Shown piece after piece: positions 1 to 6,076 of a DNA stretch of 7,494 nucleotides (positions within the stretch are counted from its first letter, which is position 1; every line of letters starts with the position of its first letter). The DNA is from a virus. Its lineage: Duplodnaviria; Heunggongvirae; Uroviricota; Caudoviricetes. The position numbers and the translations under genes were made by a program. The notes beneath the pieces are model-generated. The model did no database searches. It saw only the letters and a program-made list of their open reading frames with translations, and had not been told where the DNA came from. The DNA is taken from IMG/VR virus record IMGVR_UViG_2534681674_000036, positions 1 to 7,494 of that record. One strand, written 5' to 3'.

Positions 1-372
1 ATCGGTCGGTATCTGTATAACCTTGAGGAAGGTTTCGCACAAACATCTCTCGATAAAAAGCAGGGGTGGCACAGGGCAAAACTGAAGGATGGAACAGGAT
101 TTTACTGGCTCCCTCCATCGCTTCCGGGATGGGCAATCCCAGCATCAGATAACAAACCATCACCAGAAAATACCAACCAGAAATCTCCATCGGTTGACTG
201 CGAACAAATCCTGAAAGACTTCAGCGATTATGCGTCAACAGAAACTGACAAGAAAAAACTCATCGAGCGTTATCAGCGTGACTGGCAATTAATGGCTGGC
301 AACGAGGAAGCGCAGGCTAAATGCGTTCAGGTAATGAACATCAGAGTTAACGAACTAAAACAGGCGGCATAA
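1..372 (+). CDS. 3' part of a CDS truncated by the window start (C-terminal 123 aa); function unknown, possibly the recombinase partner of the downstream SSB
   Basis: Frame 1 is open from nt 1 to TAA at 370-372 and is absent from the ORF track. The stop is directly followed by the ssb ATG at 373, suggesting coupling. The functional guess is from synteny only. Confidence 0.5.
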   Translation: MGRYLYNLEEGFAQTSLDKKQGWHRAKLKDGTGFYWLPPSLPGWAIPASDNKPSPENTNQKSPSVDCEQILKDFSDYASTETDKKKLIERYQRDWQLMAGNEEAQAKCVQVMNIRVNELKQAA

Positions 373-879
373 ATGGCAAGCAGAGGCGTAAATAAGGTGA
401 TTATCCTTGGTCGGGTAGGACAAGACCCGGAAGTTCGATACTCACCATCAGGAACAGCGTTCGCTAACCTGACAATAGCCACGTCAGAACAATGGCGAGA
501 TAAAAATACTGGCGAGCAAAAGGAATTGACTGAATGGCATCGTGTTGCTGTATCCGGGAAACTGGCTGAGGTCGTGGGGCAGTATGTGAAAAAAGGTGAT
601 CAGATTTATTTCGAAGGAATGCTGAGAACCAGAAAGTGGAAAGACCAGTCAGGGCAAGACCGTTACACAACCGAGGTTCATGTCGGAATTAATGGCGTGA
701 TGCAAATGCTTGGCGGCATTGGCGACAGCAAACAACAAGCAGCCAGCAGGCAATCACAGAAGCCACAGCAGCAATCATCACCAGCACAACACAACGAACC
801 TCCGATGGATTTTGACGACGATATACCCTTTGCACCAGTAACTCTCCCCTTCCCTCGTCACGCTATTCACGCAATTTAA
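373..879 (+). CDS. ssb: Single-stranded DNA-binding protein (OB-fold SSB) with a 15-aa extension beyond the conserved DDDIPF tail
   Basis: N-terminus [24 protein letters not shown] and [11 protein letters not shown] match E. coli SSB closely. A Q-rich linker precedes the acidic tip [11 protein letters not shown], but the ORF continues [15 protein letters not shown] before TAA at 877-879. Confidence 0.9.
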
Positions 880-887
880 GGACTTAC

Positions 888-1436
888 ATGAATCACTTAA
901 TGGTTGACCTTGAAACAATGGGCAACGGGCCATACGCGCCAGTTATTTCTATTGGGGCGGTATTCTTTGACCCGAATACCGGAGAAACAGGAGAAGAGTT
1001 CTCGGTAAATATCTCGCTTGAGTCATCAATGCGATATCGGGCGCGTCCTGACGCTTCAACGATTTTATGGTGGATGGAACAGAGTGAAGAAGCCAGAAAA
1101 TCGCTAACCAGCAACACTCAAGAGCTTTCAACGGCTCTTTCATGGTTATCTGAATTCATCATAAAGAACGCTAACCACAAATTCGTTCAGGTTTGGGGGA
1201 ATGGAGCATCATTTGACTGCGTTATTCTCCGAAACAGTTATTCGCTGACAGGGCAGCCAGTTCCGTGGCAGTGGTGGAATGACCGCGACGTAAGAACAAT
1301 CGTCGAACTTGGGAAGGTAATAGGATTCGACCCTAAGCGAGATATGCCATTCAAAGGAACTCGCCACAACGCGCTTGATGATGCCATTCACCAAGCCAAA
1401 TACGTTTCAGCGATCTGGAAAAAGTTAGCTAAATAA
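888..1436 (+). CDS. DEDDh-family (DnaQ-like) 3'-5' exonuclease
   Basis: Exo I motif VDLET, Exo II motif GNGASFDCVIL and Exo III motif HNALDDA. An AAGGA ribosome-binding site lies 5 nt upstream of ATG 888. Confidence 0.8.
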   Translation: MNHLMVDLETMGNGPYAPVISIGAVFFDPNTGETGEEFSVNISLESSMRYRARPDASTILWWMEQSEEARKSLTSNTQELSTALSWLSEFIIKNANHKFVQVWGNGASFDCVILRNSYSLTGQPVPWQWWNDRDVRTIVELGKVIGFDPKRDMPFKGTRHNALDDAIHQAKYVSAIWKKLAK

Positions 1437-1452
1437 TCAACAGGAGAAAACC

Positions 1453-1749
1453 ATGCCAGCGCCTCTGTATGGTGCGGATGACGCGCGCCGCTGTTCCGGC
1501 AATTCCGTATCGGAGGTGCTGGATAAATTCAGGAAAAACTACGACAGGATAATGTCGCTACCGCAGGAAACGAAAGAGGAAAAGGAATTTCGCCACTGTA
1601 TATGGCTTGCAGAGAAAGAAGAACGCGAGCGAATTTACCAGACATCAATCCGACCATTCCGCAAAGCCACATATACCCACTTCCCTGAATATATCGACCC
1701 GCGCCTGCGTAATTACCGCTCACGCTATGGCGCTATCAGTAATGGTTGA
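1453..1749 (+). CDS. Hypothetical phage protein (98 aa)
   Basis: ORF with an AGGAG ribosome-binding site at 1442-1446, 6 nt from the ATG. It is packed in the operon with no recognised motif. Confidence 0.6.
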   Translation: MPAPLYGADDARRCSGNSVSEVLDKFRKNYDRIMSLPQETKEEKEFRHCIWLAEKEERERIYQTSIRPFRKATYTHFPEYIDPRLRNYRSRYGAISNG

Positions 1750-1759
1750 GGAATTAACA

Positions 1760-2050
1760 ATGAAAACAATGAAGCTAAACATCGACCTCGGCAAATACGT
1801 TATTACCGGAACCAAACACGACCTGATTCTTAGTGAAAGAGGAATTATCAAAGAAGGTGAGAATGCAGGGAAAGAAACACTAAGTCGTATCGGTTATTAC
1901 AGCAAGTTTGAGCATCTGGTTAAAGAGTTATGCAACCGTGAAATTCTGTTATCTCAGGCGCAGACGTTACAGGATATTCAGCAGCATATCGAGACTGTAT
2001 GTGTGTCACTTAGCATGGCTATTGACCAGTTCGTGGAGAGTAAATCATGA
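1760..2050 (+). CDS. Hypothetical phage protein (96 aa)
   Basis: ATG at 1760 preceded by GAGG at 1748-1751. The track's longer ORF (1607-2050) overlaps the upstream gene in another frame and lacks a ribosome-binding site. The stop TGA 2048-2050 overlaps the next ATG. Confidence 0.6.
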
Positions 2051-4407: not shown

Positions 4408-4419
4408 ATGGAGATGATT

Positions 4420-4719
4420 ATGGCCTGTTCAACATTCAACCCTCTAACGTTACAGAAATACCAGCCAGACCCTGAAGATTTATGCTCACTGTGTGGCGGA
4501 AATCATGGTAAAGCAGCCATGATCGAATGTAAGGACAAAATCCACATTTGCCTTAATTGCGTTGATGTCCTCGTTGATATCAAAAATGAGAGAGAAGATA
4601 AAAAGCGTAGCGAGGCTGTTCGCGCCTTAGATTCATGGATGCGAGATGGATATAGTGCCGCGCAAATTTATGACTTAGCAATATCAAAAGGCGAAATACC
4701 AGGAGTACGCATCGAATAA
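4420..4719 (+). CDS. Small Cys4 (zinc-ribbon-like) hypothetical protein, in the position Ea8.5 occupies in lambda
   Basis: GGAG at 4409-4412 lies 7 nt before ATG 4420. It has two CxxC pairs (CSLCGG ... CLNC). The positional analogy to lambda ea8.5 is inference only. Confidence 0.55.
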   Translation: MACSTFNPLTLQKYQPDPEDLCSLCGGNHGKAAMIECKDKIHICLNCVDVLVDIKNEREDKKRSEAVRALDSWMRDGYSAAQIYDLAISKGEIPGVRIE

Positions 4720-4760
4720 GACGTAACCGATATTCGAATTGAAGAACTGAAAGAACACCA

Positions 4761-4782
4761 AGCCGCCTGATGGCGGTTTTTT
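4761..4782 (+). terminator. Intrinsic terminator
   Basis: GCCGCC-TGAT-GGCGGT hairpin followed by TTTTTT. Confidence 0.55.
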
Positions 4783-4783
4783 C

Positions 4784-4822
4784 TTGCGTGTAATTGCGGA
4801 GACTTTGCGATGTACTTGACAC
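4784..4822 (+). promoter_or_regulatory. pI-type promoter with a CII activator site (TTGC-N6-TTGC)
   Basis: TTGCGTGTAATTGC at 4784-4797 is the CII direct-repeat motif. The predicted start site is about 4820, just inside xis (ATG 4810), as for lambda pI, which yields int without intact xis. Confidence 0.5.
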
Positions 4823-5028
4823 TTCAGGAGTGGAACGCTCGCCAGCGACGCCCAAGAAGCCTTGAAACAGTTCGTCGATGGGTGCGCGAATGCAGGATAT
4901 TCCCTCCTCCGGTTAAGGATGGAAGAGAGTATCTGTTCCACGAATCAGCGGTAAAGGTTGACTTAAATCAACCAGTAACAGGTAGCCTTTTGAAGAGGAT
5001 CAGAAATGGGAAGAAGGCGAAGTCATGA
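4810..5028 (+). CDS. xis: Excisionase Xis (lambda type)
   Basis: The 72-aa product MYLTLQEWNARQRRPRSLETVRRWVRECRIFPPP... matches lambda Xis as recalled. It overlaps int by 23 nt, as in lambda. Confidence 0.95.
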   Translation: MYLTLQEWNARQRRPRSLETVRRWVRECRIFPPPVKDGREYLFHESAVKVDLNQPVTGSLLKRIRNGKKAKS

Positions 5029-6076
5029 GCGCCGGGATTTACCCCCTAACCTTTATATAAGAAACAATGGATATTACTGCTACAGGGACCCAAGGACGGG
5101 TAAAGAGTTTGGATTAGGCCGAGACAGGCGAATCGCAATCACTGAAGCTATACAGGCCAACATTGAGTTATTTTCAGGACACAAACACAAGCCTCTGACA
5201 GCGAGAATCAACAGTGATAATTCCGTTACGTTACATTCATGGCTTGATCGCTACGAAAAAATCCTGGCCAGCAGAGGAATCAAGCAGAAGACACTCATAA
5301 ATTACATGAGCAAAATTAAAGCAATAAGGAGGGGTCTGCCTGATGCTCCACTTGAAGACATCACCACAAAAGAAATTGCGGCAATGCTCAATGGATACAT
5401 AGACGAGGGCAAGGCGGCGTCAGCCAAGTTAATCAGATCAACACTGAGCGATGCATTCCGAGAGGCAATAGCTGAAGGCCATATAACAACAAACCCGGTC
5501 GCCGCCACTCGCGCAGCAAAATCAGAGGTAAGGAGATCAAGACTTACGGCTGACGAATACCTGAAAATTTATCAAGCAGCAGAATCATCACCATGTTGGC
5601 TCAGACTTGCAATGGAACTGGCTGTTGTTACCGGGCAACGAGTTGGTGATTTATGCGAAATGAAGTGGTCTGATATCGTAGATGGATATCTTTATGTCGA
5701 GCAAAGCAAAACAGGCGTAAAAATTGCCATCCCAACAGCATTGCATGTTGATGCTCTCGGAATATCAATGAAGGAAACACTTGATAAATGCAAAGAGATT
5801 CTTGGCGGAGAAACCATAATTGCATCTACTCGTCGCGAACCGCTTTCATCCGGCACAGTATCAAGGTATTTTATGCGCGCACGAAAAGCATCAGGTCTTT
5901 CCTTCGAAGGGGATCCGCCTACCTTTCACGAGTTGCGCAGTTTGTCTGCAAGACTCTATGAGAAGCAGATAAGCGATAAGTTTGCTCAACATCTTCTCGG
6001 GCATAAGTCGGACACCATGGCATCACAGTATCGTGATGACAGAGGCAGGGAGTGGGACAAAATTGAAATCAAATAA
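5006..6076 (+). CDS. int: Tyrosine integrase Int (lambda type)
   Basis: The 356-aa product MGRRRSHERRDLPPNLYIRNNGYYCYRDPRTGKEFGLGRDRR... matches lambda Int as recalled. Catalytic motifs are present: TGQRVGDL, HELRSL, HLLGHK and the tyrosine in MASQYRDDRG. Confidence 0.97.
   Translation: MGRRRSHERRDLPPNLYIRNNGYYCYRDPRTGKEFGLGRDRRIAITEAIQANIELFSGHKHKPLTARINSDNSVTLHSWLDRYEKILASRGIKQKTLINYMSKIKAIRRGLPDAPLEDITTKEIAAMLNGYIDEGKAASAKLIRSTLSDAFREAIAEGHITTNPVAATRAAKSEVRRSRLTADEYLKIYQAAESSPCWLRLAMELAVVTGQRVGDLCEMKWSDIVDGYLYVEQSKTGVKIAIPTALHVDALGISMKETLDKCKEILGGETIIASTRREPLSSGTVSRYFMRARKASGLSFEGDPPTFHELRSLSARLYEKQISDKFAQHLLGHKSDTMASQYRDDRGREWDKIEIK

Follow-up and report, generated by a model that had tools for sequence, protein, structure and literature searches.

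A patchwork of known lambdoid phage modules beside attL at the lambda attachment site

Lambdoid phages carry several types of recombination (Rec) module, and an architecture composed of a single-strand annealing protein (SAP), a phage SSB, a DnaQ-like 3'-5' nuclease and Abc2, with HNH variants, has been catalogued for them with epsilon34 as an example (PMC12315714). The Abc2 protein of P22 binds RecC and may co-opt RecBCD for the loading of phage recombinases (PMC9836394). A Stx1a phage integrated between ybhC and ybhB has also been reported (PMC4551483). Here we describe a DNA stretch of 7,494 nucleotides (nt), positions 1 to 7,494 of the IMG/VR virus record IMGVR_UViG_2534681674_000036 (hereafter the window), which very probably represents the arm next to attL, transcribed from pL, of a lambdoid prophage that occupies the lambda attachment site between ybhC and ybhB. 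It joins recombination genes like those of phages mEp235 and mEpX2 to the integration module of lambda, with a variable P22/HK97-type 'ea' (exo-xis) region between the two. The patchwork is real but typical for lambdoid phages, and the finding is ordinary: all modules are known, each being at least 94% identical to described phage sequence, and both the type of Rec module and the Stx1a/ybhC site have been published.

Integration module, source genomes and mosaic structure

Window 4719-6164 aligns without gaps to lambda 29169-27724 (J02459), with 13 mismatches (99.1% identity), and this block spans the cII site of pI, xis, int, the P' arm and the core. The xis gene lies directly upstream of int and overlaps it at 5006-5028. 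A preliminary description, made from the sequence alone, had called xis, int and the P' arm lambda-like, and the alignments bear this out: Xis is identical to its lambda counterpart at 70 of 72 residues and Int at 354 of 356, and the P' arm and core show no mismatch. Lambda similarity ends precisely at the end of the core, where the ybhC-side bacterial DNA starts. Read on the - strand, positions 6040-6260 give ...gaagcct GCTTTTTTATACTAA gttggcattataaaaaagcattgcttatcaatttgttgcaacgaacaggtcactatcagtcaaaataaaatca..., corresponding to B arm, lambda core and lambda P' arm. Because the core abuts ybhC and these three elements lie in series, the junction is a true attL at attB-lambda. The same description had put an attL within positions 1-6076; the site exists, but 6076 is the int stop codon and attL lies beyond it, at 6077-6164. 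Insertion at attB-lambda through the lambda core is thus shown, and the lambda integration module (pI/cII site, xis, int, P' arm and core) would have put the phage there. Given the 97-99% identity to the lambda proteins and the identical arm sites, we infer Int-driven integration, as well as excision dependent on Int plus Xis as in lambda.

The two halves of the prophage part have different nearest relatives. The mosaic map (Table 1) was obtained by blastn against the homologous regions of 13 phages, namely lambda, Huey, mEp235, mEpX2, HK106, HK97, vB_EcoP-720R6, CurroJimenez, HK629, ST104, 933W, HF4s and Stx1a_11KH263. Over the Rec block, mEp235 is 98.5% identical and lambda does not match at all; over int/xis, lambda reaches 99% and mEp235 only 77%. 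These opposite patterns are direct evidence of modular exchange. They also agree with the earlier proposal that a different recombination and accessory module had been joined to a lambda integration module, as the nearest relatives of either half carry different partner modules. Lambda-like patches reach left to the ea22 start (2924-2974, 3195-3524 and 4345-4418), and a DUF551 gene and an ASCH-annotated gene (3525-4344) occupy the place of lambda ea8.5. As judged from the alignments, the breakpoints fall at ORF (open reading frame), gene and domain boundaries and in short conserved linkers; many joints are present, not one. Repeated recombination among lambdoid phages would have built such a patchwork.

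Collinearity of the whole region with one well-characterised phage, leaving nothing mosaic to explain, is highly improbable. Huey shares the general design (int/xis at 99.0%, Rad52-like gene and SSB at 98.6%, Abc2), but covers 50% of the prophage part 1-6164 at an identity of at least 90% and is missing the exonuclease, DUF5405 and lar genes as well as most of the ea region. None of the 13 references covers more than 50% of 1-6164 at this identity, and of 50,697 phage records compared with the whole window by megablast, none covers at least 80% of it, the best reaching 42-43%.

The window is nearly identical to sequence in two complete genomes from Escherichia coli strains that produce Shiga toxin, 2013C-4974 (human, USA; 1 mismatch) and OkiPb01713 (bovine faeces, Japan; 3 mismatches). 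Beyond the window, the prophage of 2013C-4974 (NZ_CP027587, 524000-573000) encodes kil, N, a LexA-family repressor in the cI position, cro, cII, replication genes, nin genes and Q, followed by stxA1a/stxB1a, lysis genes, and HK97-type head and tail genes. The toxin genes and the lambdoid gene order therefore identify the prophage in the two near-identical complete genomes as a Stx1a-converting lambdoid prophage at attB-lambda. In 2013C-4974, a serine/threonine kinase gene adjoins the repressor gene. Of 5,426 complete E. coli genomes (at least 80% coverage), 1,964 carry the int/xis block, against 139 for the Rec block and 2 for the whole window; across these genomes, the modules assort independently. 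That the junction between lambda and non-lambda DNA arose as an assembly chimera or from a laboratory lambda contaminant is barely conceivable. The int/xis/att block is indeed 99.1% identical to laboratory lambda, but a lambda-type int block is common in the genomes surveyed, and the same contiguous sequence, with ybhC at the proper attL, is present in the isolates from the USA and Japan; an artefact is unlikely because two independent complete genomes share the join.

A related arm is attached to another integrase. In E. coli strain 2313 (NZ_AP027159), a prophage beside sbcB shows 99.84% identity to window 1-3121 (5 mismatches) and 97.8% to window 3494-4414. Past the position equivalent to window 4414, its small ORF and its excisionase-like gene are different ones, and its tyrosine integrase is unrelated. 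As the similarity ends at 4414, the joint of the integration module lies at about 4414/4415. A second exchange appears to have put a lambda-type version in place of the C-terminal two-thirds of ea22 (3122-3493).

Some points weigh against the reading of the window as a patchwork prophage arm. Positions 2975-3194 and 3698-3849 are without a close match among the 13 reference phages, and a megablast of 2960-3860 gave, among the matches listed, only lambda-type matches to the 3' part of ea22. Further, insertion sequence (IS) elements and frameshifts in the matching genomes indicate that the element may be defective. Each of these genomes has an IS3-family insertion that is missing from the window: in OkiPb01713, it corresponds to window 115/116 and cuts the annealing-protein gene short, and in 2013C-4974, it corresponds to window 1115-1119 and splits the exonuclease gene, with a 5-bp overlap resembling a target-site duplication. 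A second IS3 element of 2013C-4974 interrupts the gene for a DnaB-like helicase, and frameshifts affect the portal and J genes; the prophage of this strain is probably defective. We regard it as possible, though somewhat doubtful, that the element as a whole is a decaying cryptic prophage remnant and not a functional phage arm, since the window has only intact ORFs and a perfect att half, and is free of the two IS insertions.

Table 1. Features of the window (upper rows) and mosaic segments with their matched reference phages (lower rows). Families were assigned with Pfam, PHROGs and NCBIfam; aa, amino acids; RBS, ribosome-binding site.
Position	Strand	Feature or matched reference	Evidence or identity
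1-372	+	Rad52/Rad22-family single-strand annealing protein gene, 3' part (SAP/Sak-type; 'Erf-like' in phage records)	98.5% nt identity to mEp235 and mEpX2
373-879	+	ssb, phage SSB, 168 aa	Pfam SSB E 1.6e-36
888-1436	+	DEDDh 3'-5' exonuclease, T4 DexA/DnaQ-like family	Pfam Rv2179c-like E 2.8e-73
1453-1749	+	abc2 (P22-type anti-RecBCD protein 2)	Pfam Anti-RecBCD_p2 E 4.7e-61; phrog_656 E 1e-55
1764-2045	+	DUF5405 gene (CDS 1769-2050) in 282-bp one-gene cassette	Pfam DUF5405 E 3.6e-5; blastn indel boundaries, junction sequences
2047-2211	+	DUF2737 gene (HK97 gp38-like)	Pfam DUF2737 E 2.6e-31
2208-2708	+	EaE/HK97 gp37-like gene	phrog_614 E 3e-56; counterparts annotated EaE in 720R6 and HF4s
2705-2938	+	lar-like restriction-alleviation gene (zinc-ribbon CxxC...CxxC)	Pfam Lar_restr_allev PF14354
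2925-3521	+	chimeric ea22, 198 aa	Pfam Ead_Ea22 E 6e-24; GTG start 2925 after AAGGAGG
3523-4071	+	DUF551-domain gene (EaA-like)	Pfam DUF551 E 8.6e-18
4064-4348	+	94-aa gene, RefSeq 'ASCH-domain protein'	phrog_625 E 9e-50; 95.7% nt identity to 933W
4345-4418	+	conserved 74-bp linker: two terminator-like hairpins (4350-4371, 4382-4401) and RBS of next ORF	recombination joint
4420-4719	+	99-aa CxxC-containing ORF (933W L0063-like)	phrog_3680 E 1.8e-69; 95.7-95.8% identity to 933W and Stx1a phages
4760-4797	+	terminator-like hairpin 4760-4779, then cII-binding site TTGCGTGTAATTGC of pI promoter 4784-4797	inside 99.1% lambda block
4810-5028	+	xis (excisionase)	70/72 aa identical to lambda Xis; Pfam Exc E 9e-41
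5006-6076	+	int (lambda integrase)	354/356 aa identical to lambda Int; Pfam Arm-DNA-bind_1 and Phage_integrase
6077-6164	-	attL phage half: P' arm 6077-6149 and 15-bp core GCTTTTTTATACTAA 6150-6164	88 bp, 0 mismatches to lambda
6165-7494	+	bacterial flank: B arm and complete ybhC (6211-7494)	RefSeq ybhC in both matching genomes; Pfam Pectinesterase
1-831		Huey	98.6%
1-1763		mEp235 / mEpX2	98.5% / 98.3%
1764-2045		only 720R6 (DUF5405 cassette)	96%
2046-2563		mEpX2, HK97, Stx1a phage	~95%
2526-2968		HF4s	98%
2924-2974		lambda	86%
2975-3194		no match among 13 references	
3195-3524		lambda ea22 3' end	94.5%
3494-3683		Huey	95.8%
3698-3849		no match among 13 references	
3853-4061		Stx1a phage, CurroJimenez	97.5%
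4040-4785		933W	95.7%
4345-4418		lambda, HK106, CurroJimenez, 720R6	97-98%
4719-6164		lambda	99.1%

Recombination genes and accessory region

The recombination genes constitute a known epsilon34/mEp235-type Rec module and are not unusual. The preliminary description was right in finding no Red arrangement upstream of xis, and the SSB, DEDDh exonuclease, lar-like and ea22-like genes that it listed are all present on the + strand. No lambda nucleotide match was found by blastn left of window 2924, and exo, bet and gam are missing from the annotated genes between N and int of the full 2013C-4974 prophage. The 'truncated gene' reported at the left end is there, but is cut only by the window edge: the window holds the 3' 372 nt (the last 123 codons) of a 708-nt annealing-protein gene that is complete in 2013C-4974, where the full-length protein matches Pfam Rad52_Rad22 (E 5e-26) and phrog_1097 (E 3.5e-130). 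The small genes once taken to be unique belong to known families (abc2, DUF5405, DUF2737, EaE/HK97 gp37-like). Annealing-protein, ssb, exonuclease and abc2 genes are packed on one strand, with intergenic gaps of 0, 8 and 16 nt. Based on the biology of Abc2 and Erf in P22 (PMC9836394), we propose that the module follows the P22 strategy, in which (i) Abc2 would bind RecC and co-opt RecBCD for end resection, and (ii) the Rad52-like protein, aided by the phage SSB, would anneal the resulting single strands.

The SSB has a canonical DDDIPF tip at residue 153, where the end-to-end alignment with TIGR00621 stops, and extends beyond it by 15 aa (nt 832-879). The final 14 residues of this extension recur unchanged at the C-terminus of the HNH endonucleases in Huey and CurroJimenez, whose genes sit between ssb and the next gene. 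At the nucleotide level, the 45 nt of window 835-879 close the HNH endonuclease gene at its 3' end in these two phages, with abc2 following in Huey and the exonuclease gene in CurroJimenez; the window, mEp235 and mEpX2 have them joined in frame to the last ssb codon. The 168-aa SSB of mEp235 is identical, and mEpX2 has an ssb of the same length within a block that is 98.3% identical to the window. The extension looks like the scar of an in-frame deletion (or of a homing endonuclease), and it would mask the free terminal Phe that is normally bound by host SSB partners.

All prophage genes of the window lie on the + strand, the direction of pL transcription. Matches to sigma-70-like promoters number 1 in window 1-7494, compared with 9.6 ± 3.8 expected from shuffles; this scarcity may be consistent with a long antiterminated pL operon having few internal promoters. 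No RNA or tRNA genes were detected across the window by Rfam (gathering thresholds) and ARAGORN, and Chi sites are likewise absent from it.

The accessory region starts with the DUF5405 cassette, which is exactly one gene long and flanked by similar RBS-ATGA sequences. In 11 of the 13 reference phages, abc2 is followed directly by the DUF2737 gene; 720R6 has the cassette, and 933W is unmatched in this region. The EaE-like gene (2208-2708) contains several internal breakpoints. The lar product scores 38.5 bits against PF14354 (cutoff 28.6) and 29.4 bits against TIGR03655 (cutoff 39.6), and restriction alleviation is its putative role, from the family match.

The ea22 product is 65% identical to lambda Ea22 at the amino acid level: the two proteins hardly differ in the first 15 and last ~110 aa, and the centre has been replaced. 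Its terminal KGE agrees with the K/R-G-E motif at the end of Ea22 proteins, and the Ead_Ea22 N-terminal/coiled-coil region is present. Nucleotide identity to lambda is 86% at the ea22 start (2924-2974) and 94.5% over 3195-3524, with the similarity starting exactly at the GTG at 2925 and stopping at the ea22 stop codon. This GTG is almost certainly the real start, giving a 14-nt overlap with lar, because AAGGAGG precedes it, the lambda ea22 start is its homologue and RefSeq uses it in strain 2313. The longer versions (RefSeq start at 2844, mechanical ORF start at 2733) reach too far, running into lar by 95-206 nt. An overlap of ~200 nt between lar and ea22 with both frames coding was considered, as phrog_4132 matches the alternative frame, and was rejected on the evidence for the GTG at 2925. 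Ea22 is pro-lysogenic in lambda and Stx phages, and its diversity has been reported (PMC7093339), with which the chimeric ea22 fits.

The DUF551 gene is itself composite, its N-terminal part matching Huey and its C-terminal part CurroJimenez and Stx1a phages. For the product of 4064-4348, the ASCH label given by RefSeq was not reproduced by Pfam or NCBIfam. The 74-bp linker that follows is 97-98% identical in lambda, HK106, CurroJimenez and 720R6 despite differing flanking genes, and the 99-aa ORF substitutes the lambda sequence exactly from just past the RBS in this linker to the stop codon. Three terminator-like hairpins with T-runs on the + strand lie in lambda-conserved sequence (4350-4401 and 4760-4779), upstream of the 99-aa ORF and of the cII/pI site, and coincide with the recombination linkers.

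The DexA-family exonuclease and its possible role

The exonuclease gene product has the motif residues of its family (D7, E9, D110, H160-x4-D165), matches T4 DexA (PDB 8KEL) with E 6.8e-14 and is ~31% identical to the products of T4-like dexA genes. A recombination role within the Rec module would be tentative, as DnaQ-like 3'-5' nucleases are said to "usually inhibit homologous recombination" (PMC12315714). A 2025 paper described EcD, an E. coli DexA homologue that degrades 5-hydroxymethylcytosine (5hmC) DNA and protects against T4; EcD has a Trp equivalent to DexA W152 and lacks an Asp equivalent to the tetramer residue D90 (PMC12153337). We located an EcD-like gene by blastn of the concatenated published EcD primers against E. 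coli genomes, and it is present in 26 complete genomes. EcD itself (HAK9828821.1) was not among the 40 cluster members examined. A scan of genome contigs with an EcD 17-mer gave ~99 matches, with no Enterobacteriaceae among the matches listed and DexA homologues in only two of them, Hydrogenophaga and Phocaeicola records, and a scan of viral contigs with the EcD reverse-primer sequence gave one chance match. In strain 2013C-3033 (NZ_CP027323), the EcD-like 3'-5' exonuclease gene belongs to the early region of a prophage of P2-like type close to btuC (locus L118, positions 6001-6570), with an integrase gene, DUF4761 and DUF4754 genes, and genes for a Dam methylase and a replication endonuclease as neighbours. 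PMC12153337 treats EcD as a bacterial protein and makes no mention of a prophage.

The window exonuclease is 40% identical (E 1e-38) to the EcD-like protein, retains a Trp opposite DexA W152 and lacks an Asp opposite D90; the equivalent of D169 is ambiguous in the alignment. Together with its membership of the DexA family, the shared catalytic residues and the inhibitory tendency of DnaQ-like nucleases quoted above, these traits would fit a prophage-encoded defence of the EcD/HREX type that degrades the 5hmC DNA of T-even phages, instead of a recombination factor, making the Rec module partly an immunity locus. We consider this unlikely. An identity of 40% is low, the ambiguity at D169 adds to the doubt, and the gene sits closely between ssb and abc2 as part of a conserved Rec module that also occurs in the freely replicating phages mEp235, mEpX2 and CurroJimenez. 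In addition, PADLOC found no defence-system proteins among the window proteins save for a weak generic DEDDh match to the exonuclease (E 2e-4). A slightly more elaborate and hence still more speculative version is that the exonuclease may serve in defence against T-even phages with modified DNA instead of in recombination, and may do so together with the SSB, whose host-interaction tip would be masked by the 15-aa fusion scar. If a defence function were true, lambdoid 'Rec modules' of a widespread class would at the same time be immunity loci.

Comparison with known lambdoid systems

In summary, the window adds one more case to the pervasive modular mosaicism of lambdoid phages, here in a Stx1a-converting prophage at attB-lambda, and carries little weight beyond bookkeeping. 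It does provide a base-level view of mosaic joints, which comprise exact ORF-for-ORF swaps, short linkers with terminators and RBS, and the in-frame ssb fusion scar. Moreover, near-identical early-left arms move between prophages with different integrases (ybhC versus sbcB), which bears on changes of chromosomal site among Stx phages.

The window has in common with lambda the 99.1% identical block 4719-6164 with its cII/pI site, P' arm and core, the integration site, the linker 4345-4418 (97%), and the start (86%) and C-terminal domain (94.5% nt identity) of ea22. In contrast to lambda, which matches just 30% of 1-6164, it is without exo, bet, gam, orf60a, orf61 and orf63, has the DUF551 and ASCH-annotated genes in place of ea8.5 and the 99-aa ORF of 933W type in place of the small ORF next to xis, and differs in the centre of ea22. 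Conversely, mEp235 and mEpX2 share positions 1-1763 at 98.3-98.5%, comprising the Rad52-like gene, the 168-aa SSB with its extension, the DexA/DnaQ-like exonuclease and Abc2, followed by DUF2737. However, their integrases are of the HK022 type (77% nt identity) and of the SfX type at a tRNA site, respectively, and they lack the DUF5405 cassette and have a much shorter ea region.

The 'ea' region of P22, ST104 and HK620 and the left end of 933W contain the EaE-like, Lar, Ead/Ea22, EaA-like/DUF551 and ASCH-annotated genes in patches of 91-98% nt identity, with 933W L0063-L0065 matching window 4040-4785 at 95.7%, but gene order and content vary by phage and the integration modules are others. Most gene products of the sbcB prophage of strain 2313 have RefSeq protein accessions identical to those of the window; this prophage differs in integrase, excisionase, attachment site and the C-terminal part of ea22, and is without the 99-aa ORF. 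The design as a whole is matched by Huey (BASEL collection) and HK97, in which a lambda-type int/xis/attP (99.0% and 98.9%) is combined with a Rec module that contains Abc2 and is not of the Red type. In Huey, an HNH endonuclease stands where the window has the exonuclease, HK97 has Erf and gp40, and the ea regions of both are different and shorter. This kind of combination therefore already exists in isolated phages.

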